Assembly: GCA_052034405.1 (NCBI GenBank)
Contig: JBPOIO010000023.1
Span: 15,340 to 79,339, forward strand
Direction: 5' to 3'
Origin: Candidatus Magasanikiibacteriota bacterium
GTDB taxonomy: Bacteria > Patescibacteriota > Patescibacteriia > Magasanikbacterales > UBA922
Length of the DNA: 64,000 nt
Each line of letters opens with the position of its first letter. Position 1 is the first letter of the stretch. The position numbers and the translations under genes were made by a program. Below the pieces are notes generated by a model, which did no database searches, was not told the origin of the DNA, and worked only from the letters and a program-made list of their open reading frames with translations. Of this stretch, positions 591-38,659 are shown piece after piece.

Positions 591-624
591 GATTGACAAA
601 AAGTCCTCAAATAGGTTAGAATCT

Positions 625-18696: not shown

Positions 18697-19944
18697 ATGA
18701 ATTTTTTCAAAACTCCAGTTTTTACGGGATTTATGCCAAATCTCCTCGCAAAAGAAGTGCTTCTCGCTCTCTCTTTTATGTTTCCTTGGAATTGGTCAAA
18801 ACTGCAATCGGGGAAAGCGCTCTCTTTACTCGAAAAACAATTCGAAACATTTTTTGGAATAAACTCTGTTATTGCTTTTGATAGTGGCCGTAGTAGCCTC
18901 CAAATTGCCCTAGAAAGCCTTGAAATGTCACAAAACGATGAAGTACTCCTCCAAGCCTATACCTGCTCTGTTGTGTCAAATGCCGTCATTTGGTCTGGGG
19001 CTCGTCCAGTATATGTTGATATAAACAAAAATTTCAACATGGACCCAAGTGATTTGGAGAAAAAAATCACTCCTCGTTCCAAAGTTCTCATTATTCAACA
19101 CACATTTGGAATTCCCGCAGATCTTGAAGCACTTGTAGCCATTGCCCAAAAACATAATCTTACTATCATTGAAGATTGTGCGCATGTCATTGGTGGTATG
19201 TATAAAAATAAAATGCTCGGAACTTGGGGAGATATTGCTATGCTCAGCTTTGGAACAGACAAATCTATTTCCTGTGGTCGAGGTGGAGCTTTGCTTACAA
19301 ATAATACAAATCTAGCAGAAAAATTTCGCAAAAGACAAAAAACACTTCCTCATCTTTCAAAAAAATATATTCTGCAACAACTCTACACTTTTATTCTTTT
19401 TTTTCTTTGCAAAGCACTGTATACTATTGGTATTGGAAAATTTGTACTCGCACTTTCAAAAAAATTGCATCTGAGTAGTCGAATTATTGAACAAAATGAA
19501 AAAAAAGGAAAGCAAAGTCCAAAATTTCCTGCACAATTGGCAAATACATTGGCAGAAATTGCACTTCATCAAATGAAACATTTGAATGAATTTAATGAGC
19601 ACAGAATTGCTCTTGCAGAAAACTATAAAAAAAATATACAAAATTCTCAAATAGAAACCCCAGAAAAAATTCAAAATATTCCATTTTTACGTTTTCCAAT
19701 TTTAGTCAAAAATCCAGCAAAACTTCACAAAATGGCGCAAAAAGAGGGGATACTCCTTGGAGATTGGTATACCACAGTTATTGCACCTTCTGATGTAGAT
19801 GAAAGTAAAATGGGCTATACAAAAGGATCTTGTCCCAATGCAGAAAAACTTGCGCAAAGATCAATAAATCTCCCAACACATATTCATATTTCTCAAAAAA
19901 ATCAAGAAAAAATCATCAAGATTGTAAATTCTTATGCCGAATAA
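18697..19944 (+). CDS. DegT/DnrJ/EryC1/StrS-family PLP-dependent sugar aminotransferase
   Basis: Fold-type I motifs (LLQAYTCSVVSNAVIWSGARPVYVD, AMLSFGTDKSISCGRGGALLTN). Confidence 0.8.
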   Translation: MNFFKTPVFTGFMPNLLAKEVLLALSFMFPWNWSKLQSGKALSLLEKQFETFFGINSVIAFDSGRSSLQIALESLEMSQNDEVLLQAYTCSVVSNAVIWSGARPVYVDINKNFNMDPSDLEKKITPRSKVLIIQHTFGIPADLEALVAIAQKHNLTIIEDCAHVIGGMYKNKMLGTWGDIAMLSFGTDKSISCGRGGALLTNNTNLAEKFRKRQKTLPHLSKKYILQQLYTFILFFLCKALYTIGIGKFVLALSKKLHLSSRIIEQNEKKGKQSPKFPAQLANTLAEIALHQMKHLNEFNEHRIALAENYKKNIQNSQIETPEKIQNIPFLRFPILVKNPAKLHKMAQKEGILLGDWYTTVIAPSDVDESKMGYTKGSCPNAEKLAQRSINLPTHIHISQKNQEKIIKIVNSYAE

Positions 19945-20965
19945 GCTGCGTATTCAAGAGATAGAAAGCCCACAAATTTGGGAATCTTTTGTTCGATCCC
20001 AAAAATCTACAGTTTTTGTACAAGCTCCTCAATATGGAGAATTTTATAAATCTCTTGGTGAAAATTTTTTTATTCTCGGAATTTTAAAAGAAGGGGAGCT
20101 TGTTGGAGGTTCTTTGGTAGTGACAACACATGCACGTCGTGGCAATTTCCTCTATCTTCCCTATGGTCCATTTTTACCAGAACAAAATAGGCAAGAAGCC
20201 CTGCAACTTTTCACAGAACACCTTGAAACATACGCAAAAAAACACAAATATTCTTTTATTCGTGTGAGTCCTTTTCTCGAGGAAAATGCTGAAAACATTG
20301 CTCTTTTCAAACATTGCAAATACCACCCTGCTCCCATGCATGCTCTTGCAGAAACAACATGGATTTTGAATATACAAGCATCCGAAGAAACACTTCTCAA
20401 AAACATGAACAAAAATCATCGTAATTTGATTCGTCGTTGTGAACGTGAAGGAGTTGTGATTACACAATCAACAAACCCAAAAGATCTTGATGGTCTTGAC
20501 GAAATGCTTGAGGTAACAGCACAAAGACATAACTTTACAAAATTTTCAAAAAAATATATTACTTCAGAATTCAAGAGTTTTCTCCCAGATAATACGGTTT
20601 TATTTGAAGCCAGACTTCCAGATGGTCGGCTCGATGGAGCTGCTATTATCATGTTTTATGGTACTATGGCCTGTTATCGTCATAGTGCTTCACTTGGCCT
20701 AGATAACAAGCTTCCAACCTCATATCTTCTTCAATGGAAAGTAATTCAAGAAGCTCAAAAAAGAGGCATGCACTGGTATAATTTTTGGGGTATTGCTCCC
20801 CTTGATGCCCACAAAAAACATCCATTTTTTGGTATTACCCATTTCAAAAAAGGTTTTGGTGGAGAAATACGAAATATTTTGCACTGTCAGGATTTTGTTG
20901 TCAGCAAAAAATATTATCTCAATTGGATTATAGAACAATTTCGAAAACGAAAACGTGGTTTCTAA
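19934..20965 (+). CDS. FemAB/FemX-family aminoacyl-tRNA-dependent peptidoglycan peptidyltransferase
   Basis: GNAT-duplication architecture. Motifs HRNLIRRCEREGV and ...AAIIMFYGTMACYRHSAS. Confidence 0.65.
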   Translation: MPNKLRIQEIESPQIWESFVRSQKSTVFVQAPQYGEFYKSLGENFFILGILKEGELVGGSLVVTTHARRGNFLYLPYGPFLPEQNRQEALQLFTEHLETYAKKHKYSFIRVSPFLEENAENIALFKHCKYHPAPMHALAETTWILNIQASEETLLKNMNKNHRNLIRRCEREGVVITQSTNPKDLDGLDEMLEVTAQRHNFTKFSKKYITSEFKSFLPDNTVLFEARLPDGRLDGAAIIMFYGTMACYRHSASLGLDNKLPTSYLLQWKVIQEAQKRGMHWYNFWGIAPLDAHKKHPFFGITHFKKGFGGEIRNILHCQDFVVSKKYYLNWIIEQFRKRKRGF

Positions 20966-20968
20966 AAT

Positions 20969-21925
20969 ATGAGAGATTTTTTTCATAAAAAAAATAAACA
21001 GACAGGACATATTCCACCGGGATATCGTTCTTTTGAACATAGCACGACAATTCCTGAAAAAAATAAACAAAGATCATGGAAATGGTATAGCAAAATTATC
21101 GTTATTTGTATTACTTTTTTGGGAACTTTTGGACTTCTTTTTTTACACCCTTTTTTTCAGATTCATACAATTCAAATTCGAGGTCTGCATCGTATTGAAG
21201 AAGGGGATATACGTGATACCGTAAATGGTATTCTCTCCTATAAACGTTTTTTGATTTTCCCACAAAATAATTTTTTTGTTCTTGATATTGATGATCTCCA
21301 TACTATTTTGGAACAAAAATTTGGTCTTCAAAAATTAACTATTACAAAACGCTTTCCCCATAGTGTACATATTGTTTTAGAAGAAAAACTTTCTTCTATC
21401 ATGTATGATAATGGCGAACAATATGCCATGATTGATGCGAAAGGAAAGGTTTCTGAAATTTTACGCATTATTGATGATAGTGAATGGCGTGTTATCAAAA
21501 AACGTGTTACAAGTACGAGTGAAGGTGGCACAGAAGTTTCTACTGAACAAATTGTTTCACGATTTCACACTCCAAATTATAAAAAAATTATCAGCGAAGT
21601 AGGGGACTATCCCCTCGTGTATGATAACAGAAGTAAAAAGGTAGGAAAAGGTGAACAAGTTTTGAATGAAAATACAGTCCAAGAAATCATTGAGTGGTAT
21701 GAAGCCCTCAAAAAAACAGATATTCCTTTTACTTATTTTTACTTGGAACAAGAGGTTGGTGATGTAACAATCAAAACCACAGAAGGTTGGAATATCAAAG
21801 CCAAACTCGATAAAAACATTCCAGAACAATTTCAAACCTTAGAATATATTTTGAAACAAAAAGTAAAACGTCCAGACATCCAATATATTGATGTTCGTTT
21901 TTCGGGTCGTGCTTTTTGGTTGTAA
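20969..21925 (+). CDS. ftsQ: Cell division protein FtsQ/DivIB-like (TM helix plus POTRA domain)
   Basis: N-terminal TM. POTRA-like IHTIQIRGLHRIEEGDIRDTV. Beta-domain PHSVHIVLEEK. Follows murF and fem genes. Confidence 0.55.
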   Translation: MRDFFHKKNKQTGHIPPGYRSFEHSTTIPEKNKQRSWKWYSKIIVICITFLGTFGLLFLHPFFQIHTIQIRGLHRIEEGDIRDTVNGILSYKRFLIFPQNNFFVLDIDDLHTILEQKFGLQKLTITKRFPHSVHIVLEEKLSSIMYDNGEQYAMIDAKGKVSEILRIIDDSEWRVIKKRVTSTSEGGTEVSTEQIVSRFHTPNYKKIISEVGDYPLVYDNRSKKVGKGEQVLNENTVQEIIEWYEALKKTDIPFTYFYLEQEVGDVTIKTTEGWNIKAKLDKNIPEQFQTLEYILKQKVKRPDIQYIDVRFSGRAFWL

Positions 21926-22473: not shown

Positions 22474-23256
22474 TTATTTCAAGTATTGTTGGAGTTTTGC
22501 TTCTACAGAAGAGAAAGGTTCTGCTCCGTTAACAATAGTCGTTTCGCCATTTGGCCCAACGATAATGGTATTTGGAGTTCCTCGTACTCCCCCTTCGGCA
22601 CCACTGGTACTATCTCGTTGTACACGATCAGCATATTTTTTGCTGTCCACACAAGATTGAAATTTTGAAATATTTTTTACACCAGCTTCTTTTGCATAGT
22701 TTCCAAGTTGTGAAAGGTCAAGGCCATCATTTCCTGGGGTAACAGCATAAACTTTGTCAATAAATTCCCAAAATTTACCTTGTTCAGCCGCACATTCAGA
22801 GGCAATAGCTTCTGGTCGTGCTTGACTGTGAATACTATCAAGTGGGAAATGACGGAATACCCAGCGTACTTGTGTCCCATATTTTGCCATGATTTGTTGC
22901 ATGGTTGGGTGAAAAGTTTTACAAAATGGACATTCAAGATCACTATATTCGATCAAAGTTACTTTTGCATTGGCATTACCACGGATATGGTCAACTTTTG
23001 GGTCAACTGCTGCAACGGTTATTTTTGTTGGGGCAGCATTATTATCTGCAGCACTTGGGTTTTGTGCATTGTTGTTGAGAACAATGGGTGAGTTACTTCC
23101 ACTATCACTATCATTTGATTGAAAATACACTCCAATCATGATAAAAAAACCAAGTGTACAAAGAACGAGAATCGCTTCGACCACTCCAAAAATAAAAACC
23201 TGGATCGGACTCATGGTCGAGAGGAATCCGGATTTAGGCGCAACTGTGTTGTCCAT
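22474..23256 (-). CDS. DsbA-family thiol:disulfide oxidoreductase, membrane-anchored
   Basis: N-terminal TM. Thioredoxin CPFC active site. Low-complexity linker. Confidence 0.75.
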   Translation of the reverse strand: MDNTVAPKSGFLSTMSPIQVFIFGVVEAILVLCTLGFFIMIGVYFQSNDSDSGSNSPIVLNNNAQNPSAADNNAAPTKITVAAVDPKVDHIRGNANAKVTLIEYSDLECPFCKTFHPTMQQIMAKYGTQVRWVFRHFPLDSIHSQARPEAIASECAAEQGKFWEFIDKVYAVTPGNDGLDLSQLGNYAKEAGVKNISKFQSCVDSKKYADRVQRDSTSGAEGGVRGTPNTIIVGPNGETTIVNGAEPFSSVEAKLQQYLK

Positions 23257-24331: not shown

Positions 24332-25726
24332 TTAACCAAATTTGGTATCTTTTGCAAATGAACCACCCTGTACACCACTATCCATAAAAATCTCTTCGGG
24401 GGCATTTGAAGGCGCAAGGAGTGATTCAATAGGAAGTCCCATTGGAGGTTCTGCACTTTTCATTTTTGTTTTTTGAAGTGATGGGGTTTTTACATGAGAC
24501 ATTGGAAAATGCCAAATAGTTGCGAGTTCTTCTACATTGAGAACACAGGGATTCGCCCCAGTACCAATTTTTCGTTTTTTATAAGCCTTCATGAGCAATT
24601 TTTTACGATCATTGCTTCGCTTTTTGGCAAACATATAGTGAGCCCCACTTGAAAATTTTGGTACAATAGAATTTGATGTTGGAATATTATATTGATGCAG
24701 TGCCCCAATAATAGCATTAACGGCACGACCAGGTTGAAAGACTTCTTTTCGTGCCAAATAAAGCGCACGCATTTTGGTTTTGAAGCCAAGCATGCTAATT
24801 TTTTTCTCCATAGCCTCAACTAAAGTTTTTTGGCCAGGAGTTAGAAAACTCAAATTATTCATAGGTCCACCATGATCGTCATGAGACTCCGAAGCTTCAC
24901 GTGCAAAAACTTGATCTCCTACTTGTTCAAGAAGTTTAAAGGGAGCCGAAGTAATAGCATCAACAATTTTATTTCCTCCATGGTGATGTGACTCGGCACC
25001 AATAATTTCGTTTATTTTTTCCATGGCGTGATGTTTCCAACTATTGGAAATTGGTTCGATCAAAATCTGAAACCAAATTTGTTCTCCAGGGCCAATACGT
25101 GTAAAACTCTCCAAAAATGCTCCCATTGGATCTTTTAAGACAGTATCTTTGGAAATGCTATGTTCAAATTCACGATAAGTACGAATAGGATAGGCATCGT
25201 CTGTTGCAAGAGTAAAATCCCCTGCCCACATGTCATACTCTGAATCTGGAAAAGTATCCGGAGCCTTGGTCACATAATCTTCTACTTCAATGACTTCAAT
25301 ATCAGGGTACTGTGCATACAGAGCCGCTTCAACCAAATCACGATAACTCTCTTCGGTACGAATCAAAAATTGAATATAACCCTCTATACTAATAATTTCA
25401 AAACTAAACCATTTTTGTTTGTAACCATGCCAAAATTTTTCACCAATACCAGGGTCATTGAAAGCTCCAGCAAGATGAAAGAAAAATTGTTCTACAGCCT
25501 TTGGTGTTTGTACATTAATAGCAGGAGTATCAACAGCAAGCAAAACCCATTTCCAACTATGTTTATAAAGCTCCTGACGATATTCTAGAAAGTATTCTTC
25601 AAATACAAGAGCAATAAGCCAAAAAAATATAAGATAGCCAAACATGGCAAAAAGTTGGGTGACGACTTCAAATGGAGTTTGAAGAAAAAAAACACTGATT
25701 GTATCCAAAATTGTTGCAAAGTCCAT
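24332..25726 (-). CDS. Hypothetical protein, N-terminal TM helices plus large soluble domain
   Basis: 464-aa ORF. No P-loop or other recognisable catalytic motif. Confidence 0.5.
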   Translation of the reverse strand: MDFATILDTISVFFLQTPFEVVTQLFAMFGYLIFFWLIALVFEEYFLEYRQELYKHSWKWVLLAVDTPAINVQTPKAVEQFFFHLAGAFNDPGIGEKFWHGYKQKWFSFEIISIEGYIQFLIRTEESYRDLVEAALYAQYPDIEVIEVEDYVTKAPDTFPDSEYDMWAGDFTLATDDAYPIRTYREFEHSISKDTVLKDPMGAFLESFTRIGPGEQIWFQILIEPISNSWKHHAMEKINEIIGAESHHHGGNKIVDAITSAPFKLLEQVGDQVFAREASESHDDHGGPMNNLSFLTPGQKTLVEAMEKKISMLGFKTKMRALYLARKEVFQPGRAVNAIIGALHQYNIPTSNSIVPKFSSGAHYMFAKKRSNDRKKLLMKAYKKRKIGTGANPCVLNVEELATIWHFPMSHVKTPSLQKTKMKSAEPPMGLPIESLLAPSNAPEEIFMDSGVQGGSFAKDTKFG

Positions 25727-26005: not shown

Positions 26006-26926
26006 TTATTTTCTTGTTTTTCTCCATTCTTCCCAAGATACCAGAAGAGAACTTGCAATAAAAATTGATGAATAAGTTCCAAAGAATACTCCGATAATCA
26101 GTGCAAGTGAAAAAGATCTTGTTGTTTCTCCACCAAAGAAATACAGAGCAATCAAAGTCAATTGTACTGTAAGTGAAGTGTTGACAGAACGACCAATCGT
26201 TTCATTGACAGCAAGATTCACTGTCTGAGCAAAATCTTTGATACCTTTGAGCAATACTTTTTCACGAATACGATCAAATACTACGATCGTATCGTTAACA
26301 GAATAACCCAAGATTGTCAGCAAGGCTACAACAAAAGAAATATCTACTTCAATACCCAGAAAATGTCCAAGAAGTGAGAAAATACCCATTGTAATTACTA
26401 CATCGTGCAAGAGCGCTACAACAGCCGTTACACCATATTTCCATGAAGGAACAGATTTTGAGACCTTACGAAAGGCATAGGCAATAAAGAGCACAATACC
26501 AATAGATACGGCCAAAATAGCATAGAGTGATCGAGTTTTGAGCTGTTCACTAAATGCTGGTCCAATAGTTTCAAGACGTTCTTCACGAACTTGGACAGTA
26601 TCTTTTTGAAATTGATCACGAAGACCAAGAAGAATCTTTTGGTGTTCTGCTTCTGAAATAAATGGCAATTTTATAATAATAGATTGATCACCAGAAAATT
26701 GCAGTTTTGATGGAGTAAATCCAGTTTTTTCAATAGTTGTCCTTATTTCAGTTGTCTGTGGACGAGCGCCACCAGTAAAACTCACTTCAAGAAGTGAACC
26801 ACCAGTAAAATCAAGTCCGGGTTTCAGACCAAAAACAAATAAAGAAATAAGACTGGTCACGAATAAAATTCCTGAAAAGATAAAGGCAATATTTCTTTTT
26901 TTAATAATTTCGTACAACATAGACAA
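26006..26926 (-). CDS. secF: Protein translocase subunit SecF
   Basis: 6-TM SecF pattern (LDFTGGSLLEV, ...YSVNDTIVVFDRIRE). Confidence 0.85.
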   Translation of the reverse strand: MSMLYEIIKKRNIAFIFSGILFVTSLISLFVFGLKPGLDFTGGSLLEVSFTGGARPQTTEIRTTIEKTGFTPSKLQFSGDQSIIIKLPFISEAEHQKILLGLRDQFQKDTVQVREERLETIGPAFSEQLKTRSLYAILAVSIGIVLFIAYAFRKVSKSVPSWKYGVTAVVALLHDVVITMGIFSLLGHFLGIEVDISFVVALLTILGYSVNDTIVVFDRIREKVLLKGIKDFAQTVNLAVNETIGRSVNTSLTVQLTLIALYFFGGETTRSFSLALIIGVFFGTYSSIFIASSLLVSWEEWRKTRK

Positions 26927-28987
26927 TTATTTGGATGAATTATTTTTGTCACCTTGTTTGAAACCAAGAAACAAAAAGTGAGCACGATTTTCAAACCAAG
27001 GAGCAATAAATCGAAGCATAACACGAGTCACTGTAATCGCAGTAAACAAACTCACCAAGATACCAAGAGACAATGTTACCGCAAAACCTTTGACAAAACT
27101 TGAACCAAACCACATAAGAAGGACACAGGTAATAAGTGTTGACATGTTTCCATCGCGAATAGAAGACCAAGCACGAATAAATCCTTCTTCAATACCTGTT
27201 TTCAATGATTTACCAAGACGAAGTTCTTCTTTCAAGCGTTCGAAGATCAAAATATTTGCATCAATCGCAATACCAATAGACAGGATAAAACCAGTAATAC
27301 CTGAAAGTGATAGTGTTACTCCAATAAATTTGAATACCGCAAGTGTGAGTACAATGTACAGACCAAGTGAGAATACAGAAAGAAGTCCTGGTAAACGGTA
27401 ATAAAGAACCATGAAGATAAAGATGAGCAGTACTGCGATTTCAGCCGCTCTCAAACTCTTATACAGAGAATCAGCACCAAGACTCGCACCAATACTTTGC
27501 TGAGAAAGAAGTGTTACTGGTACAGGAAGAGCTCCAGCATTGAGACGTTGTGAAAGAAGTTTTGCTTCTGTTACATTGAATCCTCCAGTAATAACAGCTT
27601 GACCACCAGTAATTGCTTGATTCACATTTGGTGAACTAATTACTTCTCCATCAAGGAAAATACCCACAGGTTTTCCAACATTTTTTCGAGTGATTTCTTC
27701 AAAGAGTTTGGCACCTTCTTCATTAAATTGAAGAGATACTTGAATTTCTGAAGTTTGAGGATTTGTTGTAACTTCTGCTTTTTTCAATTGTTTTCCAGAT
27801 AATGCTGTTGTTTTCCAAGCATCAGTTGGTGGAAGTACTTCTTCTTTTGTTTTTTTGTCCAAGAAAATTTTCCAAATTTCGTAATCTTTGGTTACATTTT
27901 CTGCTGTTTTATAAATAATATGATAACCAAATTGTGTTTCTACTGGTCCAACAATTTCTCCAGCCTTGGCAGCAAATAATACATTTTCAAATTCTGAAAT
28001 CATGACTCCTTTTGGGAATGTTCCAAGTTCACCACCTTTTACAGCAGTTGAACGATCTGTTGAGTATTGTTTTGCAAGATCAGAAAAGTTTTTTGCATTT
28101 GCTTGTGCATACACATCTTGTGCAATTTTGAGCGCATCTGCTTTTGTAGATGTTGCAGTACAACCAGGAGCTCCACTAAAACAAATCAAAATATGTTTTG
28201 ATGTTACTTCTACTTCACCAGATTGTTCTTTTCCACGTTTCAAAATATAGTATCCATCTGCTTCGTCAAGAACTTTATCTGTAAGTTGACCTTCTTTGGC
28301 TTTTTCTGCCCAAGGATATGCAATTTGATTATTTTGTGCATATTTTTTTACAAACCCCATATATCCTCCATTGTTTTTTGTTGCTTCATCTTCTGAATAT
28401 TGTTTGGCAACATTTTCAAATGGAGTTTTTTTCTTGAGATCAATAAGTGCAGTATCTGCTTTTGTTTTTTGAGCCGCATTAAAATCTGCAATCATTTTTT
28501 TCTCATCTGCAGTCAAATCACGTGGGACTTCTTTATTTTCTTCTTTAAATTCCAAAATTGGAGTTTCACCAATCAATTTTGTTGCTTCGCTAACATCGGT
28601 TACTCCAGGAAGTTCTACATTAATATGATATTCATTTCCTACTTTACTTGTTTCAATGTTTGGTTCCCCTACTCCAAAACCATTGATACGACGTTCAATA
28701 ACATCGCGGGCACCTTCAACCGCTCCACTACGTTCTGTTTGTGCAAGATTTTCTACATTTGCGTTATAAACAAGATGTACACCACTTTGAAGATCAAGCC
28801 CAAGACGAAATTTTTTCTCTGGAACATGTGGAATACTCATGTGAATTTTTGAGTTGACCTTGTCAACACCACGATTTACTTGTTCTGGAACAACAAAAGA
28901 GAGACTGGCAAGAAAGAGAACGATAACTCCAGCAATTCCCCAACGGATTTGTGAACGAAGGTTAACTTGTGTTTTTTGTGCTTTCAT
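26927..28987 (-). CDS. secD: Protein translocase subunit SecD with parvulin-type PPIase-like insert in periplasmic domain
   Basis: SecD TM core at C-terminus. Periplasmic region has PpiC-like segment (SKHILICF...AKQYSTDRSTAVKGGELGTFPKGVMISEFENVLFAAKAGEIVGPVETQFGYHIIYKT) and a second degenerate copy upstream. Confidence 0.85.
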   Translation of the reverse strand: MKAQKTQVNLRSQIRWGIAGVIVLFLASLSFVVPEQVNRGVDKVNSKIHMSIPHVPEKKFRLGLDLQSGVHLVYNANVENLAQTERSGAVEGARDVIERRINGFGVGEPNIETSKVGNEYHINVELPGVTDVSEATKLIGETPILEFKEENKEVPRDLTADEKKMIADFNAAQKTKADTALIDLKKKTPFENVAKQYSEDEATKNNGGYMGFVKKYAQNNQIAYPWAEKAKEGQLTDKVLDEADGYYILKRGKEQSGEVEVTSKHILICFSGAPGCTATSTKADALKIAQDVYAQANAKNFSDLAKQYSTDRSTAVKGGELGTFPKGVMISEFENVLFAAKAGEIVGPVETQFGYHIIYKTAENVTKDYEIWKIFLDKKTKEEVLPPTDAWKTTALSGKQLKKAEVTTNPQTSEIQVSLQFNEEGAKLFEEITRKNVGKPVGIFLDGEVISSPNVNQAITGGQAVITGGFNVTEAKLLSQRLNAGALPVPVTLLSQQSIGASLGADSLYKSLRAAEIAVLLIFIFMVLYYRLPGLLSVFSLGLYIVLTLAVFKFIGVTLSLSGITGFILSIGIAIDANILIFERLKEELRLGKSLKTGIEEGFIRAWSSIRDGNMSTLITCVLLMWFGSSFVKGFAVTLSLGILVSLFTAITVTRVMLRFIAPWFENRAHFLFLGFKQGDKNNSSK

Positions 28988-29067: not shown

Positions 29068-31908
29068 CTAGCCCCCACGCTCCATGCGTTGGCGCTTTCT
29101 TCGGTCTTTTTTACTCTCATGCTTTTTTCCATCATTTTGAACTGTGCGTACTGCTTTTTGGGATACCTCACTACTTCCCTCTTGGACCAAGTTGTCGTTG
29201 GCCATAATTGTTGGCACGAGTTCAATTCCATGCTGTACCTTATAAAATGCATAGACCACCTCTTTTTGGATATTGAGAAGAAGTGCTTGAAACATTTGAT
29301 AGGCCTCGCGTTTGTATTCAATAAGTGGATCACGCTGTCCATATCCACGAAGACCAATACCGGTGCGCAAATAATCGATATTGATAAGATGTTCTACCCA
29401 AAGCGTATCAATACTACGAAGAAGCAATGACTTTTCAATCGAATGCATTATTTTGTTTGCTTCTTCGGGATTCACTTGTAATTTTTGAATTGAGTTTTCA
29501 ATTTTTGTATATTCTTCTTTTGCTCGACCAAAAAGATACTGGATTATTTCTTCTTTTGCTTCGATTTCTTCGAGTTTTCCAGATTGCTGATGCGCTCCCA
29601 TTTCAAAAACTTTTGCCTTATCAGCTTCTGTAAATGAATATATTGTTGCCATTACCTGACAAATTTCTTGAAGATTCCAATCTCCATGTTCACGACTTTC
29701 TTCATTCTCAACTTCTACTTCCAATTTTTGAGTATGAAATTGTACAACTTGTTCGATTTCATTTTCTACAGAATTCAAAATCATGTCTTTAAGTGAGACA
29801 AATTTTACTTCTTCAACTTTTTCCAATTCTTCATCAACTTCTTCTTCGTCACTCACAAGAGGACTTGGTTTTTCTGTTATACCAATTTCCATGTCGTAGA
29901 GTTCCAAAATATTTTTTCGTTTTTTATATATAACAGAGCGATGACGATTGAGCACATCATCATATTCAAGCAAATGTTTACGAATATCAAAGTTATGACC
30001 TTCTACTTTTTTTTGTGCATTCTCAAGAATTCTTGAAATCATGTTTTGTTCAATCGGCATGTCGTCTGGCACCTTCATGCGTGTCATCACATTTTTGAGA
30101 CGATCCCCAGCAAAAATACGCATCAAGTCATCGTCTGTTGAAACAAAAAATTGTGTTTCTCCAGGATCTCCCTGACGACCAGAACGTCCACGAAGCTGAT
30201 TGTCGATACGACGCGCTTCATGACGCTCGGTTCCAAGGACAAAAAGTCCACCAGCAGATTTTACAATTTCAATATCCTCTGCACTCGCTGGCGTTCCACC
30301 AAGTTTGATATCCACACCACGTCCAGCCATATTGGTAGCGAGGGTCACTGCTCCAGGTCGTCCGGCTTGGGCAATAATTTCTCCTTCACGTTCATGATTT
30401 TTTGCATTCAAAATTTCGTGAGTGATACCAAGACTATTCAAATAGTTACTCAAACGTTCATTTTTTTCTACAGAAATAGTACCCACCAAAATTGGCTGTT
30501 GTTTTTCTCTACATTCTTGAATTTTTTTTGCAACGGCTTTGAATTTTACGACTTCATCTTTATAGATTCGATCTGGCAAATCCACGCGTGCAGCAACTTT
30601 ATTGGTTGGGATAACCAACACATCGAGGTTATAAATACGACGAAATTCTTCTTCTTCTGTTTGCGCAGTACCTGTCATACCAGACAACTTTTTGTACATG
30701 CGGAACAAATTTTGAAATGTAATCGTCGCAAGTGTTTGACTCTCACGTTGAATTTTTACATTTTCTTTTGCTTCAATTGCTTGGTGAAGTCCTTCACTAT
30801 AACGGCGACCTTCCATTTTTCGTCCAGTAAACTCATCAATAATCATGACTTCATCTCCATCAACCACATAATCTTTGTCACGTTTGAAAAGCACTTCGGC
30901 TTTGAGCGCTTGTTCAATATGATGAATTGTTCGAATACCAGCTTCTACATAAATATTTTCAATACCGAGCCATTTTTCAAATTTTTCAATACCTTGCTCA
31001 GTCAAATTCACACTGCGCATTTTTTCATCTTTGTTATAATCGGTATTTTCCGAAAGTCCACGAACGAGTTTTGCAAATTGATAATATTGATCATTGGCAT
31101 CTTCATTTGGTGCAGAAATAATAAGCGGTGTACGAGCTTCGTCTACCAAAATAGAATCAATTTCATCGACAATCGCATAATGCATTTCATTGCCTGGTCG
31201 CATAACCATTTCTGAAATATCCTGGACCATGTTATCACGCAAATAATCAAAACCATATTCGTTATTGGTTCCGTAGGTAATATCACAAAGATATGCTTCT
31301 TGACGACTCGAAGCTCGCAAATATTCATTTTCTACTTTGAATACTTGTACTTCATTTTCTTCACTCGAAATAGTTTCTGCGCTTGGAGCGATAACACTTG
31401 GGTCAAAAACATAACTCACACGCATGTTTTGGATAATACCCGTAGACATGCCAAGAAAATGATAAATTTTCCCCATCCATACAGCATCACGACGTGCGAG
31501 ATAATCATTGACTGTTACTACGTGTACACCTTTGCCTTCAAGTGCATTGAGATAGGCCGGAAGTGTTGCTACCAATGTTTTTCCTTCACCAGTTCGCATT
31601 TCAGAAATCATACCATTATGAAGTGCCATACCACCAATCAGCTGCACATCAAAATGACGCATACCCGAAACGCGTTTTGCTGCTTCACGCACAGTGGCAA
31701 AAGCCTCGGGAAGAATATCATTCAAAACTTCTCCCTCTGAGAGACGTTTTTTGAATTCAGCTGTTTTGGCTTTGAGTGCATCATCTGAAAGCGCAGAAAA
31801 ATCAGCTTCTAGAGCATTGATTTGTTCAACAACTTTTTGATATTGCTTAATAATCTTGGAATTTTGACTCCCAAACACTCCTTCGTAGACAGATTTTAAA
31901 AGACTCAT
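29068..31908 (-). CDS. secA: Preprotein translocase ATPase SecA
   Basis: MRHFDVQLIGGMALHNGMISEMRTGEGKTLVATLPAYLNAL. DEAD-like motor. 946 aa. Confidence 0.9.
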   Translation of the reverse strand: MSLLKSVYEGVFGSQNSKIIKQYQKVVEQINALEADFSALSDDALKAKTAEFKKRLSEGEVLNDILPEAFATVREAAKRVSGMRHFDVQLIGGMALHNGMISEMRTGEGKTLVATLPAYLNALEGKGVHVVTVNDYLARRDAVWMGKIYHFLGMSTGIIQNMRVSYVFDPSVIAPSAETISSEENEVQVFKVENEYLRASSRQEAYLCDITYGTNNEYGFDYLRDNMVQDISEMVMRPGNEMHYAIVDEIDSILVDEARTPLIISAPNEDANDQYYQFAKLVRGLSENTDYNKDEKMRSVNLTEQGIEKFEKWLGIENIYVEAGIRTIHHIEQALKAEVLFKRDKDYVVDGDEVMIIDEFTGRKMEGRRYSEGLHQAIEAKENVKIQRESQTLATITFQNLFRMYKKLSGMTGTAQTEEEEFRRIYNLDVLVIPTNKVAARVDLPDRIYKDEVVKFKAVAKKIQECREKQQPILVGTISVEKNERLSNYLNSLGITHEILNAKNHEREGEIIAQAGRPGAVTLATNMAGRGVDIKLGGTPASAEDIEIVKSAGGLFVLGTERHEARRIDNQLRGRSGRQGDPGETQFFVSTDDDLMRIFAGDRLKNVMTRMKVPDDMPIEQNMISRILENAQKKVEGHNFDIRKHLLEYDDVLNRHRSVIYKKRKNILELYDMEIGITEKPSPLVSDEEEVDEELEKVEEVKFVSLKDMILNSVENEIEQVVQFHTQKLEVEVENEESREHGDWNLQEICQVMATIYSFTEADKAKVFEMGAHQQSGKLEEIEAKEEIIQYLFGRAKEEYTKIENSIQKLQVNPEEANKIMHSIEKSLLLRSIDTLWVEHLINIDYLRTGIGLRGYGQRDPLIEYKREAYQMFQALLLNIQKEVVYAFYKVQHGIELVPTIMANDNLVQEGSSEVSQKAVRTVQNDGKKHESKKDRRKRQRMERGG

Positions 31909-32417: not shown

Positions 32418-33353
32418 CTAAATCAATTGAATTTCTTCTTCTATAGATATTCCAAATTTATTGTACACTTTTTCTTTTATTTCATCAATGAGAGTCAAAA
32501 CATCACTCGAACTTGCACTCCCAAGATTTATAATAAAATTTCCATGCGTATCGCTTACTTTTGCATTTCCTACCTGAGCCCCTTTCATACCCGCTTTATC
32601 AATAAGCCATCCTGCAGAAATAATTCCTTTTTGTTTGAATTCTTCAGGTACTTCAAAATTGAGTTTTGCTTGTCCAATTTCAAAATTTTTAAAAATACAA
32701 CCGGTAGATGCAAATCCCTGTGGTTGAGTCTTGCTGCGATATTGCAAAAACTCCAATGCTTTTTTCATGCCGTCTTTGTTTTCGGATTTTTCAAGTTTTA
32801 AATGCACTCGTAGTACCACAGCACCACTGTCTTTGAACATACTATGACGATAGTGAAAATCACACTGCGCATTGCTCAGCATTACCAGCTCACCATCCAT
32901 ATAGGCTTCGATCTTTTCTACATTATTACTCATGTCACTTCCCATAGCTCCTGCGTTTCCTCGAACCGCGCCACCAATAGTACCAGGCACTCCCACGCCC
33001 CATTCAAATCCAATAAAACCTTCTTTCATGGAGAGATTGGCAATGGCAACGGTACTGCATCCAGCATCTGCAATGATCCCAGTATCTGTCACTTCTGTTT
33101 TTTTTGTGTTGATATTGATCACAACACCTGTATATTCACTATCAGAAGCAAGCATATTACTACCACCACCGAGGATAAATCGTTCAATCCCCTCTTCGTC
33201 AAGAAATTTGAGGAGATCTACCAGCTTGTCAGTTTCGTCAACAACAACAAAAAGTTGGACTGGTCCACCAATTTTGAAGGTTGTATGCTTACTCATGGGC
33301 TCATTGAGCTTCACTTTTCCGTAGTTTTTGAGCTTTTTATAAAGTTCCATCAT
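32418..33353 (-). CDS. murB: UDP-N-acetylenolpyruvoylglucosamine reductase
   Basis: FAD-binding domain (TTFKIGGPVQLFVVV, ILGGGSNML) and C-terminal MurB domain. Confidence 0.85.
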   Translation of the reverse strand: MMELYKKLKNYGKVKLNEPMSKHTTFKIGGPVQLFVVVDETDKLVDLLKFLDEEGIERFILGGGSNMLASDSEYTGVVININTKKTEVTDTGIIADAGCSTVAIANLSMKEGFIGFEWGVGVPGTIGGAVRGNAGAMGSDMSNNVEKIEAYMDGELVMLSNAQCDFHYRHSMFKDSGAVVLRVHLKLEKSENKDGMKKALEFLQYRSKTQPQGFASTGCIFKNFEIGQAKLNFEVPEEFKQKGIISAGWLIDKAGMKGAQVGNAKVSDTHGNFIINLGSASSSDVLTLIDEIKEKVYNKFGISIEEEIQLI

Positions 33354-33354
33354 A

Positions 33355-33383
33355 TTGCCATAATCAAATTTTTGTCCTATACT
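33355..33383 (+). promoter_or_regulatory. Candidate promoter TTGCCA-17-TATACT for ATP-grasp gene
   Basis: TTGCCA 33355-33360, 17-nt spacer, TATACT 33378-33383. Predicted TSS ~33390, i.e. about 94-nt leader. Confidence 0.45.
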
Positions 33384-33385
33384 AA

Positions 33386-33483
33386 GGTCTACGCATTTAA
33401 CCTTTTCGCTTTCCTCGCCCTGGGCTCGGGGATGCCCTCTGCGGAGGTCGTAACCCGCTCAAAGGTCAAATGCTTACGCCCTT
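33386..33483 (+). promoter_or_regulatory. GC-rich structured 5' leader (candidate riboswitch or cis-regulatory RNA) of ATP-grasp gene
   Basis: About 65% GC in an AT-rich genome. Long-range helix GCATTTAACC (33393-33402) with GGTCAAATGC (33464-33473), 9/10 bp. Several internal GC hairpins (GGGC...GCCC, GCGG...CCGC). Lies between promoter and ATG at 33484. Confidence 0.35.
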
Positions 33484-34689
33484 ATGCATATGCCAAAAAT
33501 ACTTTTTTACATTACTCGAGATATCGAAAGAGCACTTGGCCTTTCTGTAGATAATGAAGGCTATTTTATTATCTCAAATTCTACCCCCTTTAGCAAGCAA
33601 ATCGCTCTTTTACATCCAAATGTTTTACTTGTTGAAGAAAGCCAACTTCTTGATACCCATGAACTTTTGCAAAAGCAGAGTGTTCAAGATTTTATTACGC
33701 AAAATTCAAATAACATGAAGCCAAATATTTTGGTTTTCAAAAATACTTCTATTATTGAAAAAATTTGTACAGAAAACAATTGGAATCTCCTCAATCCAAG
33801 TGCAAAACTCTCTCAAATGATCGAAGAAAAAATTACACAAGTTGAATGGCTCGGGAGTCTCACAAAATATCTTCCTCCACACAAAATTCAAATTGCCCAT
33901 GATGTTGTGTATGACGGCATGCCATTTATTTTGCAGTTCAATCGTGCACACACGGGACTAGGAACGATGATGATTTCTTCGACTGAACAACTTGCCGAAA
34001 TACAAAATAAATTTCCGGATCGTCCTGTTCGCATCACGCAGTTTATTGATGGTGCCATGCTGACGAGTAACAATGTTGTCTGTCCTGATAAAGTTTTGGT
34101 TGGCAATATCAGCTACCAGATTACCGGTACGCCACCATTTACAGATAATCCATTTACAACTATTGGCAATGATTGGGCCCTTCCACATGTTTTGTTGAAT
34201 GATGAGTTGAAAGCGCAATACCATACGATTGCCACAGAGATTGGAAACAAACTTCGTGAAAGCGGATGGAAAGGACTCTTTGGAATTGACGTTATACTCG
34301 ATACAGCAGAAAATAAATTGTATTTGATCGAAATCAATGCAAGGCAACCAGCAAGTACCACTTACGAAAGTATTTTGCAAGAAAAAAATACAACTTTTGC
34401 TGCACACCTCTCAGCGCTCACAGATACTCCAAGTAACGAATTAACTCAAATCACAACAGGTGCGCAGATTATTGTTCGCAATGGTGAACTCATGCAAGAC
34501 AAAACCCAAGATACGATTATCCAAAACTTAAAAAACCTCAATTTTGATCTGAACATCATCCCCTACACCAATACAGACCCAGGTTCAGATTGGATTCGCA
34601 TTCAGACAACCCAGTCTTTATTTACAGAACATAATAAACTCAACGAACTTGGAGAAAAAATAAAAAAAACTCTTGAAGAGTCTCTATAA
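33484..34689 (+). CDS. ATP-grasp fold ligase (possibly a divergent D-Ala-D-Ala ligase or other peptidoglycan amino-acid ligase)
   Basis: C-terminal ATP-grasp signature GLFGIDVILDTAENKLYLIEINARQPAS, analogous to Ddl RVDFF...YLNEINTMPGFT. Adjacent to murB. N-terminal Ddl motif GGxSxEHEVS absent. Confidence 0.7.
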   Translation: MHMPKILFYITRDIERALGLSVDNEGYFIISNSTPFSKQIALLHPNVLLVEESQLLDTHELLQKQSVQDFITQNSNNMKPNILVFKNTSIIEKICTENNWNLLNPSAKLSQMIEEKITQVEWLGSLTKYLPPHKIQIAHDVVYDGMPFILQFNRAHTGLGTMMISSTEQLAEIQNKFPDRPVRITQFIDGAMLTSNNVVCPDKVLVGNISYQITGTPPFTDNPFTTIGNDWALPHVLLNDELKAQYHTIATEIGNKLRESGWKGLFGIDVILDTAENKLYLIEINARQPASTTYESILQEKNTTFAAHLSALTDTPSNELTQITTGAQIIVRNGELMQDKTQDTIIQNLKNLNFDLNIIPYTNTDPGSDWIRIQTTQSLFTEHNKLNELGEKIKKTLEESL

Positions 34690-34702
34690 AATGAAGGGTA
34701 AC

Positions 34703-34828
34703 GGACGGGCTGTGGTAAGTTGAGATGCTCGACCAAATCAACTATTCCATCTTCAGTTGGTATGCGTGTTGGAGTGACAACAAGCTTACCTACTGATAAA
34801 GGAAACCATTCGGCTACCCAGCCCGTCC
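34703..34828 (+). ncRNA. Candidate structured GC-rich RNA element (unknown class)
   Basis: Closing helix GGACGGGCTG-(T)-GGTA (34703-34717) with TACC-CAGCCCGTCC (34815-34828), 14 bp. Internal hairpins CAACT/AGTTG and TGTTG/CAACA. No ORF. GC far above background. Ends just before a TATATAAT box. Confidence 0.3.
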
Positions 34829-34865
34829 GCCCATATATAATCACAACACAGCATAATTGTCAACT

Positions 34866-35660
34866 ATGAACAACAAAACTCTCTCACAACCCGCACTCGA
34901 TATTATCAAAAATTATTCTCAGCTTGTCTTTGGCGACAAAAAAATAAACTGCCCCTACTTCAACAACCGCCGCAGCAAAGTTCGCGCAGGGTTGCGGGTA
35001 ATGATTGGAAAAGGCAACCCAGAAGAAATTATTGACGAAGCAAATCTTTTTGCACTCCGAGAAAAAATTGATCTCAAAAATTTATCAAGCGAGGCAATAA
35101 AACAATTTCTCGTTGATCACAATCTTGGACTTGATTGTTCTGCCTTTGCCTATTATATTTTGGCAGCAGAATACGCAAGCAAGACAAAAAATAAACTTTC
35201 TTCCAAGATATTTTATCCAAATATTGGACTTTTGCGAAAACTTCTCACCAAACTTCGCCCTGTAGAAAATATTGGGGTCAAAACTTTGGCACAGGAAAAA
35301 AACTCACATCTTGTTTCGCTCTCTGACACTGCTCCGGGAGACTTTGTAAGTATTTTAAATTCAGGAAAAGAACACAACCTCAATCATATCCTCGTCATTT
35401 ACAAAGTTGAATACGAAGAAAACCAGCCAAAAACATTGTACTATGTACATTCTTTTCAATGGTCCACAGATGGAAAATATAATCATGGAATAAAAACAGG
35501 GCGCATTGAAATTACTGATACGAAAAAAACACTGCTCGAGCAAAAATGGATTGAATCCGAAAAAACAGCTGAACAAAATGAAACTTACCTCCGAGCAAGT
35601 GATGCCGAAGTACTCGAACTCAAACGACTGAATGTATTATTAACAAAAAATCCTGCTTGA
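34866..35660 (+). CDS. Hypothetical protein (265 aa)
   Basis: ORF track 34857 (TTG) with first ATG at 34866. Followed by a terminator. Confidence 0.5.
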   Translation: MNNKTLSQPALDIIKNYSQLVFGDKKINCPYFNNRRSKVRAGLRVMIGKGNPEEIIDEANLFALREKIDLKNLSSEAIKQFLVDHNLGLDCSAFAYYILAAEYASKTKNKLSSKIFYPNIGLLRKLLTKLRPVENIGVKTLAQEKNSHLVSLSDTAPGDFVSILNSGKEHNLNHILVIYKVEYEENQPKTLYYVHSFQWSTDGKYNHGIKTGRIEITDTKKTLLEQKWIESEKTAEQNETYLRASDAEVLELKRLNVLLTKNPA

Positions 35661-35680
35661 GTGCAGGTTTTTTTATTTTT
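35645..35680 (+). terminator. Intrinsic terminator
   Basis: CCTGC (35652-35656) pairs with GCAGG (35663-35667). Then TTTTTTT (35668-35674). Overlaps the stop codon. Confidence 0.55.
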
Positions 35681-35777
35681 CTTCTAAATACCTCCGAGGA
35701 GATTTTCAAAAGGAAGGTCCGCGCGAAGTGCACGGAAGGATGGCGGCCCAATATCCGCCAGAATAGGGTTGTTTCGC

Positions 35778-36197
35778 CTAGAGCTTGCGCAGCTCGGCGA
35801 GGACGACCCACATATTCGAGACGTAGAGGTAGTAGCGCTGGAACAGATCGCTCGTGGCGGTCGGGATTCGTTCAAAATCCCCAGTCGCCAGATCTGCGGG
35901 CTCATTGCTGTAGCCCATTTCACGGAGGCAGCGCATCACCTCGGCAATGACCGACTGAATCCGCTGGTACTTCACGCCCATCGGATCAGCGTTCTTCACC
36001 CAGTTGAGCAGCAGCCCACGGATGGCCGAGAGGTGTTCCGCCTCCGAGTCATCACGATCCGCGCCAAAAACCTCTCGCAGTCGAAGTCCGTACATGACGG
36101 AAAAACTCCTGGCCCCGTCTGGGACAGGGCGAACTTGGTGTGGCTTTTGGCCACCATGGCCGCCAGCCTTTGTCGTTCCAGGACAATGGGGCACCAA
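35778..36197 (-). CDS. Hypothetical protein on a high-GC island (probable horizontally acquired gene)
   Basis: Region 35700-36230 is ~60% GC. Minus-frame codon third positions are strongly GC-biased (over 70%), whereas the antisense plus ORF 35769..36326 is not. Possible internal start at MYGLRL... Confidence 0.45.
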   Translation of the reverse strand: MVPHCPGTTKAGGHGGQKPHQVRPVPDGARSFSVMYGLRLREVFGADRDDSEAEHLSAIRGLLLNWVKNADPMGVKYQRIQSVIAEVMRCLREMGYSNEPADLATGDFERIPTATSDLFQRYYLYVSNMWVVLAELRKL

Positions 36198-36334
36198 TTA
36201 AACGAACGAGCACCAAATAAGGAGTTTATTATATTTTTAAAATTTATATGTGGACGAATGGAACGACCCACAAATCTACCACAATTCCTCTCCCTTGTCA
36301 ATCCCCACATTCTCTGCTATACTTGAAGAAAAAT

Positions 36335-37465: not shown

Positions 37466-37476
37466 ACAAAAATAGT

Positions 37477-38618: not shown

Positions 38619-38659
38619 AATACTTTTTTCTTTTCCAAACATAAACAAAATTTACCTTT

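Follow-up and report, generated by a model that had tools for sequence, protein, structure and literature searches.

Two parvulin domains inserted in the P1 domain of SecD suggest a translocon-tethered prolyl isomerase in Patescibacteria

The window, by which we mean the whole 64-kb stretch of DNA analysed, carries secA, secD and secF on one strand, together with a gene for a DsbA-like thiol oxidoreductase (Table 1). In at least 60 of 80 related loci secF follows secD directly, and in 54 a secA homologue lies upstream of secD. In addition, an uncharacterised membrane protein is conserved beside secF in 53 of these loci. The window also encodes FemAB and Mur genes, which, together with the anchored DsbA-like protein and the literature on the group (PMC9166423), suggest a monoderm-like envelope. 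Scans of the 64-kb window for tRNAs and Rfam families returned no matches.

Table 1. Features of the secD locus and of the SecD polypeptide, with positions in the window
Feature	Residues	Coordinates	Strand	Basis or remark
secD ORF with parvulin insert	686 aa	26927..28987	(-)	ATG start, TAA stop (ORF listing)
TM1	13-37	28877..28951	(-)	Hydropathy scan; helix 5-32 in AF2 model
P1 base, N-terminal part	58-150	28538..28816	(-)	SecD_1st; Thermus SecDF 25-117
Parvulin copy 1, degenerate outer domain	151-252	28232..28537	(-)	Rotamase_3 43.4 bits alone
Outgoing connector	253-260	28208..28231	(-)	Within one predicted strand, 245-268
Parvulin copy 2	261-361	27905..28207	(-)	Rotamase_3 93.7 bits alone
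Return strand	362-380	27848..27904	(-)	DSSP strand 354-377; extends copy 2 beta4 back along copy 1
P1 head subdomain	381-490	27518..27847	(-)	
TM2-TM6	500-664	26996..27490	(-)	SecD_SecF_C, hydropathy, Thermus TM region alignment
secF		26006..26926	(-)	Begins right after secD stop; TIGR00966 282.7 bits
secA		29068..31908	(-)	SecA-type by reading translation; 80 bp upstream of secD, same strand
Membrane-anchored DsbA-like thiol oxidoreductase, CPFC		22474..23256	(-)	Pfam Thioredoxin_4 and DSBA

Judged by its sequence, the secD product is a genuine SecD with an RND-type bundle of five TM helices, the partner of the adjacent SecF, and is predicted to take part in proton transport. NCBI holds an identical protein (P0001). 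The SecD profile TIGR01129 matches at 369.2 bits against a cut-off of 244.4, aligning residues 62-658 with profile positions 1-397, and Pfam assigns SecD_1st to residues 91-151, SecDF_P1_head to residues 392-489 and SecD_SecF_C to residues 493-658. The P1 periplasmic domain, with both its base and its head subdomain, lies between TM1 and TM2, and the N-terminal position of TM1 places the following ~460 residues outside the cytoplasm. The N-terminal part of the base closes with the invariant strand P-I-L-E-F-K-E, in which L145 and F147 are present in all 225 non-redundant intact relatives. The TM2-TM6 region holds the conserved motif AIDANILIFER, with D576 and N578 invariant in the relatives' alignment A1, and its 'iaidanilifer' aligns with 'aavdgnvlsfer' of Thermus SecDF. 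We take the conserved membrane Asp to be the proton-pathway residue of Thermus SecDF TM4, D340.

About 230 residues are inserted directly after the strand LEFKE, where the P1 base passes into the P1 head. Residues 25-117 of Thermus SecDF align with residues 53-149 of this SecD and residues 147-430 with residues 382-666, so that ~232 residues stand where canonical SecD and SecDF proteins (Thermus thermophilus 3AQP, 3AQO and 5YHF; Deinococcus 5XAM/5XAN) have ~29, and the Pfam P1-head profile goes unmatched over its first ~16 positions. On the whole protein, Rotamase_3 and Rotamase (E=2.2e-37 and E=4.2e-34, respectively) match over two stretches each, and the two copies scanned separately both exceed the Rotamase_3 gathering cut-off of 22.5 bits. 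The insert consists of these two parvulin domains and their connectors and nothing else. The preliminary description of this locus had read the P1 region as carrying a PpiC/parvulin segment with a degenerate copy upstream, and hence as fusing a foldase to a translocon accessory subunit. We recover this arrangement, with one canonical and one degenerate domain, both above the Pfam gathering score and both covalently within the SecD polypeptide. The interval on which that description had staked its claim, residues ~190-370, does give a significant Pfam parvulin match, but its limits are here redrawn to ~151-380 for the insert, ~151-252 for copy 1 and ~261-361 for copy 2. The junction between base and insert is common to the 225 relatives. 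Across this set, conservation within the insert peaks at the catalytic and proline-pocket positions, and median identity to the SecD studied rises from 39% in copy 1 to 52.5% in copy 2 and to 63-68% in the SecD core.

A parvulin active site is made up of a dual His on beta1 and beta4, a Cys or Asp and a Ser on the alpha3-beta2 loop, and a proline pocket of Leu, Met and Phe; as reference positions in Pin1 numbering we take H59, C113, S111/S154, H157, L122, M130 and F134. Copy 2 has the corresponding residues H265, S309, D311, L321, M329, F333 and H356. Its His pair is intact in 221 of the 225 relatives (H265 in 222, H356 in 223), and the other sites are similarly retained (S309 in 221, Asp or Glu at 311 in 221, M329 in 196 and F333 in 219). 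The segment TQFGYHII aligns with the corresponding motif of PrsA, PpiC and SurA-P2, the nearest PDB sequence is PrsA (E=6e-16), and close structural matches include the peptide-bound PPIase domain I of SurA (2pv1) and the parvulin of PpiD (2kgj). Copy 2 is therefore a parvulin by profile score, by fold and by its catalytic and pocket residues, and its residue pattern makes it most likely an active, non-phospho-specific peptidyl-prolyl isomerase. An intact-looking parvulin site is also compatible with negligible PPIase activity. A family of three-parvulin stand-alone proteins (the P0138 family) scored very high against copy 2; it was considered as a possible donor of the insert or as the lineage's own free PrsA-like protein and was set aside, its relatives belonging to Planctomycetes, to Myxococcota and to genomes with contigs of 7-12 Mb.

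The beta1-alpha1 loop of copy 2 contains Cys269 and Cys276. Both are present in 203 of the 225 relatives, both are missing in 22 and no relative has one alone. Such a pattern points to a C269-C276 disulfide that probably staples the substrate-side loop of copy 2. The DsbA-like protein of the window has a hydrophobic N-terminal anchor and a CPFC motif in its translation; its gene shows no synteny to secD in related loci, and we therefore claim no operon-level link between the two.

Copy 1 covers positions 34-111 of the 116 in the Rotamase_3 profile and has no canonical beta1 at its N-terminal side. Where the beta4 His would lie, at position 247, this SecD has Tyr, and the 225 relatives include 124 with Asn, 22 with Glu, 20 with Tyr and 9 with His. 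At position 373, the presumed site of the beta1 His, it has Lys, with Arg in 148 relatives and His in 16. Copy 1 is without the dual His but scores as a parvulin by profile, and its nearest PDB sequence is PrsA (E=8e-7); it has the parvulin fold and is predicted to be non-catalytic. The domain is full length in 225 of 225 relatives and has conserved residues of its own (N206, G208, W226 and G252).

The absence of an N-terminal beta1 can be viewed beside the simpler SecDs of the sister lineages Veblenbacteria and Kerfeldbacteria, which have a single parvulin at the same insertion site, followed by an A-S-H-I-L strand. Copy 1 is the positional counterpart of this single domain. Of 122 one-parvulin SecDs, 120 have the beta4 His and 117 the His of the trailing strand; the two His occur together in 117, and 2 sequences have Tyr at both positions. 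When the trailing strand was moved in silico ahead of the domain, the PF00639 match reached profile position 1 and the Rotamase_3 score rose by 8 to 10 bits, and LEFKE never aligned as a parvulin beta1 in these permutation tests. The one-parvulin form hence appears to be circularly permuted, with its His-bearing beta1 strand C-terminal to beta4. The same permutation of copy 1 in the SecD studied left the score unchanged; in this copy, strand and site alike are degenerate. Of the 9 relatives with H247, 5 also have H373, a residue that occurs in 16 of the whole set of 225 (Fisher p=1e-4, with phylogeny ignored). This co-occurrence, together with the predicted strands described below, suggests that copy 1 is permuted too, and the return strand would then be its beta1-equivalent. 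In a literature search that took in few subscription journals, we found no described family of permuted parvulins.

Two independent AF2 runs, one on the full-length protein and one on P1 alone, both gave continuous strands at residues 245-268 and 354-377 by DSSP, the first of which is 208-231 in the numbering of the P1-only model. Across the insert, pLDDT is 93-97 when P1 is modelled by itself and about 90 when the full-length protein is modelled, and the corresponding pTM values of 0.58 and 0.39 leave the inter-domain geometry uncertain. The positions of the two His pairs sum to nearly the same number (265+356=621 and 247+373=620), which fits a single antiparallel register. From these observations we infer that residues 245-252 pair with 370-377. 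Copy 2 looks to be nested at the tip of the beta4/beta1 hairpin of copy 1.

At least 80 species representatives of GTDB have two-parvulin SecDs, among them Magasanikbacteria, Falkowbacteria, Uhrbacteria and Buchananbacteria, and the species that have them probably number in the hundreds. The size of the insert differs by lineage, at about 131, 240 or 350 residues. The parvulin-bearing SecD is a clade-wide design, with one-parvulin, two-parvulin and larger-insert variants, and no peculiarity of one genome. A published description of a SecD-parvulin fusion did not turn up in a search of literature mostly outside the subscription journals.

The known parvulin foldases of the Sec pathway provide the closest comparisons. 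Against the NCBIfam models, SecD scores 77-78 bits for PrsA (cut-offs 343-361) and 58-78 bits for PrsA and SurA taken together (cut-offs 343-394), and no SurA_N-type Pfam family matches it at E<=0.1. Its parvulin domains have no flanking chaperone module and are internal to a polytopic SecD instead of standing alone, which sets them apart from PrsA, SurA and PpiD; because this module is absent, we do not regard the insert as PrsA or SurA. In SurA, PpiD and PrsA, chaperone function resides mainly in the non-parvulin modules. E. coli SurA (1M5Y) likewise has two tandem parvulins, one degenerate and one active-type, and matches copy 2 well in both sequence and structure. However, SurA is soluble, its parvulins are arranged in series whereas those of SecD are proposed to be nested and permuted, and most of its chaperone activity lies in an N-/C-terminal module that parvulin SecD does not have. 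It also serves outer-membrane proteins, in contrast to the monoderm-like envelope suggested for the host of parvulin SecD. SurA has been reported to bind the holotranslocon at SecDF, with an AlphaFold prediction (PMC9987972) in which both SurA parvulins sit on the P1 head. PrsA of Bacillus subtilis and B. anthracis (4WO7, 1ZK6, 6XD8) is similar in being a membrane-tethered extracytoplasmic parvulin that acts on Sec substrates in monoderms, but it is a lipoprotein dimer with a single parvulin in an NC chaperone domain, whereas the scaffold in parvulin SecD is P1.

PpiD of the E. coli PpiD-YfgM complex (8ZHT) is a protein of its own, with a single membrane pass, a chaperone module and a parvulin that is inactive. 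It binds SecY and is without the covalent linkage to SecDF that parvulin SecD has. A functional parallel is the dome on the Sec translocon of M. pneumoniae, formed by PrsA-like parvulin lipoproteins that cross-link to SecD, in which substrate density touches a catalytically intact parvulin domain (bioRxiv 10.1101/2025.04.25.650208, 10.1101/2024.09.05.611430). In this Mdp dome (Mpn444/436/489), as in parvulin SecD, a genome-reduced bacterium couples parvulin foldases physically to SecDF/SecYEG and combines one intact parvulin, which in the dome faces the emerging substrate, with degenerate paralogous domains. The Mdp proteins are nevertheless very large PrsA-like lipoproteins with chaperone modules that assemble non-covalently, unlike the small bare domains of SecD, and the two are not homologous as systems.

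Taken as a whole, the reading that best explains these observations is a translocon-tethered PPIase, a rigid and nested two-parvulin module carried on SecD P1, to which we give a probability of roughly 0.6. The module would be inserted after LEFKE, the strand connecting base to head, with an outer, permuted copy 1 and an inner copy 2 set into the tip of its beta4/beta1 hairpin, and with two long antiparallel strands (245-268 and 354-377) traversing both domains. It would adjoin the P1 head, which in SecDF holds preproteins as they emerge and moves with the proton-motive force. Riding beside the head, the module would probably lie where it meets Sec substrates as they leave SecYEG. We infer that copy 2 would catalyse Xaa-Pro isomerisation in nascent secretory proteins during or just after translocation, and that copy 1, without a catalytic His pair, would most likely serve as a stalk, a substrate-contact surface or both. 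The P1 head may act as the 'holder', the role that the chaperone module has in PrsA, SurA and trigger factor.

Why such a fusion should exist is a separate question from how it works, and an explanation of its origin is for this reason compatible with a tethered PPIase. The preliminary description had suggested that the SecD parvulin may make up for missing PrsA or SurA in a reduced genome. In full, this idea would have reduced genomes lose their free foldases of this type and keep the SecD parvulin as sole extracytoplasmic PPIase. We consider it doubtful. Consistent with it, the 64-kb window has no other parvulin ORF, none is present around secD in 80 related genomes (875 kb in all, ±6 kb per locus), and the stand-alone multi-parvulin proteins most like copy 2 belong to Planctomycetes and Myxococcota and not to Patescibacteria. 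However, according to a survey of CPR, every class has members with a PrsA annotation (PMC9166423). These KO-based calls might themselves be matches to SecD-embedded parvulins; the supplement of that survey mentions neither PrsA, K07533 nor SecD.

The retention of a degenerate copy 1 bears on a different alternative, in which the insert is a holdase or anti-backsliding clamp and no enzyme, the parvulins adding polypeptide-binding surface and the 'catalytic' residues of copy 2 serving binding only. The P1 head would then capture substrate over an enlarged area, as with the inactive parvulin domains of PpiD and SurA-P1, and Jensen et al. discuss how a chain that partly folds or is bound on the trans side may be kept from backsliding. 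Copy 1 lost its His pair yet persists at full length with its own conserved residues, and the close structural matches include both a peptide-bound SurA domain and the PpiD parvulin. Inactive parvulins, however, typically lose their catalytic residues, as copy 1 did, and the outer domain lost exactly these residues where a second intact domain exists. Catalysis predicts that the His/Ser/Asp-Glu set be kept almost throughout, as it is in 221 of 225 sequences for copy 2 and in 117 of 122 one-parvulin forms, and on this balance we find a purely binding role unlikely, somewhat more so than the compensation idea.

The location of the insert, exactly after the hinge or connector strand LEFKE, could also point to a regulatory or structural role at the joint between base and head. 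Here the module would limit the PMF-driven swing of P1, or would be a spacer or docking platform for another part of the envelope, be it YidC or a factor of the cell wall or pilus, with no direct part in substrate folding. The predicted continuous beta-ribbon, suggestive of a rigid stalk, the lineage-variable insert size and the uncharacterised membrane protein beside secF would all suit such a role. A spacer or regulator has no need for a conserved parvulin active site, however, and the insert is most strongly conserved at precisely its catalytic and proline-pocket positions, which makes this role improbable. Finally, a mis-assembly, frameshift or chimeric gene call can be dismissed, with nothing found in its favour: the module is internal to an uninterrupted ORF with SecD P1 elements on both sides, and the same junction recurs in 225 non-redundant sequences, which are independent and come from many different assemblies and sources.

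If the tethered PPIase reading is correct, a stronger version can be entertained, tentatively and with less confidence, in which SecD is a one-polypeptide 'translocate-and-fold' device. The PMF-driven swing of the P1 head would mechanically hand emerging chains to the attached isomerase in a large clade of Patescibacteria, and the permuted, nested and disulfide-stapled module, a domain within a domain within a domain, would be a new and undescribed parvulin topology. The fusion would in addition be a natural Rosetta-stone sign of a general functional partnership, across bacteria, between the P1 head of SecDF and the parvulin chaperones (SurA, PrsA, PpiD and Mdp).

The handover of proteins from SecYEG to folding factors is still being worked out. 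The link between SecDF and parvulins has so far come from low-resolution EM with AlphaFold docking for SurA (PMC9987972) and from in-cell tomography in Mycoplasma (bioRxiv 10.1101/2025.04.25.650208). A covalent fusion in this many species, with its active-site pattern under selection, provides independent evolutionary evidence for the partnership. Parvulin SecD also offers a compact and defined construct for studying whether PMF-driven P1 movement is coupled to catalysed folding, and the family supplies natural cases of parvulin circular permutation and of nested domain insertion. Databases annotate the parvulin-bearing proteins as plain "SecD", a label that hides the foldase and affects censuses of extracytoplasmic chaperones in Patescibacteria.

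On the basis of its sequence, the product of secD is a bona fide SecD, with TIGR01129 (NCBIfam) scoring 369 bits over residues 62-658 against a cut-off of 244, and the gene order secA-secD-secF is kept across the set of 80 related loci. Pfam places PPIC-type rotamase domains in two stretches between the two P1 pieces (Rotamase_3, E=2e-37; Rotamase, E=4e-34). The preliminary description had proposed a parvulin signature in the P1 region together with a degenerate upstream copy. Both parts of that observation hold, as each segment alone gives a significant parvulin profile match (93.7 bits for the downstream copy 2 and 43.4 bits for the upstream copy 1, against a gathering score of 22.5). In alignment with Thermus thermophilus SecDF (3AQP), residues 25-117 and 147-430 correspond to window SecD residues 53-149 and 382-666, and therefore ~232 residues replace ~29 in Thermus. 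The insert starts directly after the conserved P-I-L-E-F-K-E strand at the end of the P1-base profile and ends just before the P1 head. The hydrophobic TM1 comes before this region, so the parvulin module is extracytoplasmic. Pfam finds no SurA_N or PrsA-type chaperone module in the window SecD, and the scores for the NCBIfam PrsA and SurA equivalogs lie well under their cut-offs.

Sequence features of the window and of SecD (residue counts from 225 non-redundant two-parvulin SecDs)
Feature	Position	Strand	Description
secD	26927-28987	minus	single uninterrupted ORF, 686 aa
secF	26006-26926		next ORF downstream of secD; TIGR00966, 283 bits
SecA-like ORF	80 bp upstream of secD		assigned from its own sequence
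DsbA-like protein	22474-23256	minus	thioredoxin fold, membrane-anchored, CPFC active site
464-aa ORF	24332-25726	minus	hydrophobic N-terminal segments
Envelope genes	18697-21925 (+) and 32418-40464		DegT-type aminotransferase, FemAB, MurB, Mur ligase, MraY-type glycosyltransferase 4
ATP-grasp protein	33484-34689		NCBIfam matches weak, sub-threshold
TM1	SecD 13-37		hydrophobic
SecD_1st	SecD 91-151		Pfam
SecDF_P1_head	SecD 392-489		Pfam
SecD_SecF_C	SecD 493-658		Pfam
Copy 1	SecD 151-252		247: N124, E22, Y20, H9; 373: R148, H16
Copy 2	SecD 261-361		H265 222, H356 223 (together 221), S309 221, D/E311 221, M329 196, F333 219
C269 + C276	copy 2		both present in 203, both absent in 22, only one present in 0

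The one-parvulin SecDs of sister lineages bear on the architecture of the insert. In these proteins the PF00639 match begins only at profile position ~8-10, so the His-bearing β1 is missing ahead of the domain, and a strand A-S-H-I-L-I lies 19-24 residues past β4. Among 122 such SecDs, 120 have the β4 His and 117 the trailing His; 117 have the pair and 2 have Tyr at both positions. Ser208 and Asp210 are near-invariant. When the trailing strand is placed ahead of the domain in silico, the PF00639 match reaches back to position 1 and the Rotamase_3 score of two proteins gains 8.4 and 10.5 bits; in none of the re-permutation profile scans does the LEFKE strand of SecD itself align as β1. From these results we conclude that the SecD-borne parvulin appears to be circularly permuted, with β1 supplied after β4. 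Copy 1 is the positional counterpart of the one-parvulin domain, with the common pattern L-T-x-E-x-x-K...N170...A177...F190...S198-x-D200...G207-G208, and copy 2 is a complete canonical parvulin between copy 1's β4 and the return strand. A nested arrangement is supported by the models from two independent AF2 runs (full-length, pLDDT 80, low pTM of 0.39; P1-only, pLDDT 86, insert 93-97, low pTM of 0.58), each of which has two unbroken 24-residue strands, 245-268 and 354-377. The His-pair position sums are nearly equal (265+356=621, 247+373=620), as expected because one antiparallel ribbon would give this. In addition, His373 occurs in 5 of the 9 relatives keeping His247 versus 16/225 overall (Fisher p=1e-4, phylogeny ignored). 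The nested topology is thus well supported for the family, and for the window SecD we infer it.

The motif ...GGELG...TQFGYHII of copy 2 aligns residue-for-residue to PrsA, PpiC and SurA-P2, and copy 1 has lost the catalytic pair. Relative to the window protein, copy 2 has a median identity of 52.5%, copy 1 of 39% and the SecD core of 63-68%. The co-varying C269 and C276, in the β1-α1 loop of copy 2, follow the pattern that a disulfide would give. The DsbA-like protein, with its CPFC active site, indicates extracytoplasmic disulfide formation in this organism; its gene has no synteny with secD in related loci. In one alignment of relatives, the subgroup free of the Cys pair, which includes SecDF-length forms, carries ~12-15 additional residues in copy 1 as a hairpin-like insertion (e.g. 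GNDGYIYSDGQLIAQEG), and its connector following copy 2 is ~7 residues longer.

The SecDF structures of Tsukazaki and Furukawa reportedly show the P1 head holding unfolded preprotein at the SecYEG exit and, driven by the proton-motive force, swinging about the base-head hinge. Placed beside this hinge, a rigid parvulin module would encounter the substrate emerging from SecYEG; there copy 2 would catalyse Xaa-Pro isomerisation, and copy 1 would serve as a stalk and perhaps offer a binding surface too. The 'holder' role that the chaperone module has in PrsA, SurA and trigger factor would fall to the P1 head. SecDF is where SurA binds the holotranslocon, and in an AlphaFold prediction both SurA parvulin domains sit on the P1 head (PMC9987972). 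The Sec translocon of Mycoplasma pneumoniae carries a dome of PrsA-like parvulin lipoproteins that cross-link to SecD, with putative substrate density touching the sole catalytically intact parvulin domain (bioRxiv 10.1101/2025.04.25.650208, 10.1101/2024.09.05.611430). By analogy, these precedents make a translocon-coupled parvulin mechanism plausible. SurA, the Mdp proteins and the window SecD are alike in that one intact plus one degenerate parvulin recurs.

The preliminary description suggested that the fusion may compensate for a lost PrsA, which would explain why it exists and is compatible with an enzyme mechanism. There is no other parvulin in the 64-kb window or in 875 kb of related flanks; a CPR survey records PrsA annotations in all CPR classes (PMC9166423). 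Rivals to the translocon-coupled enzyme are that the module is a pure holdase or anti-backsliding device, or a hinge regulator or spacer. An artefactual fusion is excluded, as the same parvulin-SecD junction recurs across independent relatives, which also excludes mis-assembly.

The best 120 matches in a 5.8-billion-protein collection (55-100% identity) all carry Rotamase and SecD Pfam domains; those with a name are labelled just 'protein translocase subunit SecD' and come from Candidatus Magasanikbacteria or the Patescibacteria group. An exhaustive phmmer search of 1.84 billion cluster representatives with the junction region (residues 88-400) returned ~30 that align over the whole junction in one stretch, at identities down to ~33%, including single-chain SecDF forms of 1015-1075 aa. 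A scan of GTDB species representatives gave 579 relatives, an upper bound because the search pattern falls in the SecD part; each of the 80 loci retained spans junction residues 2-313, with identities of 40-57%, and the taxa in the record titles are Magasanikbacteria, Falkowbacteria, Uhrbacteria, Buchananbacteria, Parcubacteria and the Patescibacteria group. In NCBI taxonomy, Magasanikiibacteriota belongs to the Patescibacteria group, Parcubacteria group, and these lineages probably fall in GTDB class ABY1. Many fusion-bearing GTDB representatives (loci L001, L002, L005, L016 and others) bear the title 'uncultured Gammaproteobacteria bacterium isolate binchicken_...' or one like it. Their SecDs are 45-57% identical to Magasanikbacteria SecD (L051 is OZ246416.1, an 886-kb chromosome), and the label looks like a placeholder or mis-assignment.

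In one-parvulin representatives, SecD is 533-624 aa long and its only parvulin occupies the same site. This form is abundant: the best 120 matches to one example, P0177, all carry one parvulin, and among their names are Veblenbacteria, Kerfeldbacteria, Nomurabacteria and the Patescibacteria group. A larger insert of ~350 aa is found in P0162 (776 aa). Further variants (P0152, P0236 and P0261, 1015-1075 aa; P0227, 794 aa; P0193, 795 aa) include single-chain SecDF with a parvulin insert, N-terminal extensions and an interrupted P1 head. Stand-alone proteins with three or four tandem canonical parvulins (P0138, P0139, P0143 and P0146, 366-414 aa; P0151, 796 aa; P0164) have kin in Planctomycetes, Myxococcota and other large genomes, and are not of the SecD insert's lineage.

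SecD and parvulin are textbook families, and public databases already contain fused sequences, named plain SecD, for which Pfam matches are precomputed; in the full-text literature searched we found no description of a SecD-parvulin fusion or a permuted parvulin. The protein offers natural fusion evidence for a SecDF-parvulin chaperone partnership, a compact experimental handle on translocation-folding coupling and an unusual nested, permuted domain architecture.

The 464-aa ORF has no match in Pfam, NCBIfam or PDB; in 53/80 related Patescibacteria loci a same-strand homologue lies downstream of secF, which makes the ORF product a candidate Sec-associated or envelope protein. The peptidoglycan and envelope genes fit a walled cell. 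Across the whole 64 kb (1-64000), no match to a tRNA, tmRNA or Rfam family reaches the gathering threshold. GC content of the window is 34-45%, and cumulative GC skew declines steadily from ~16 kb on.
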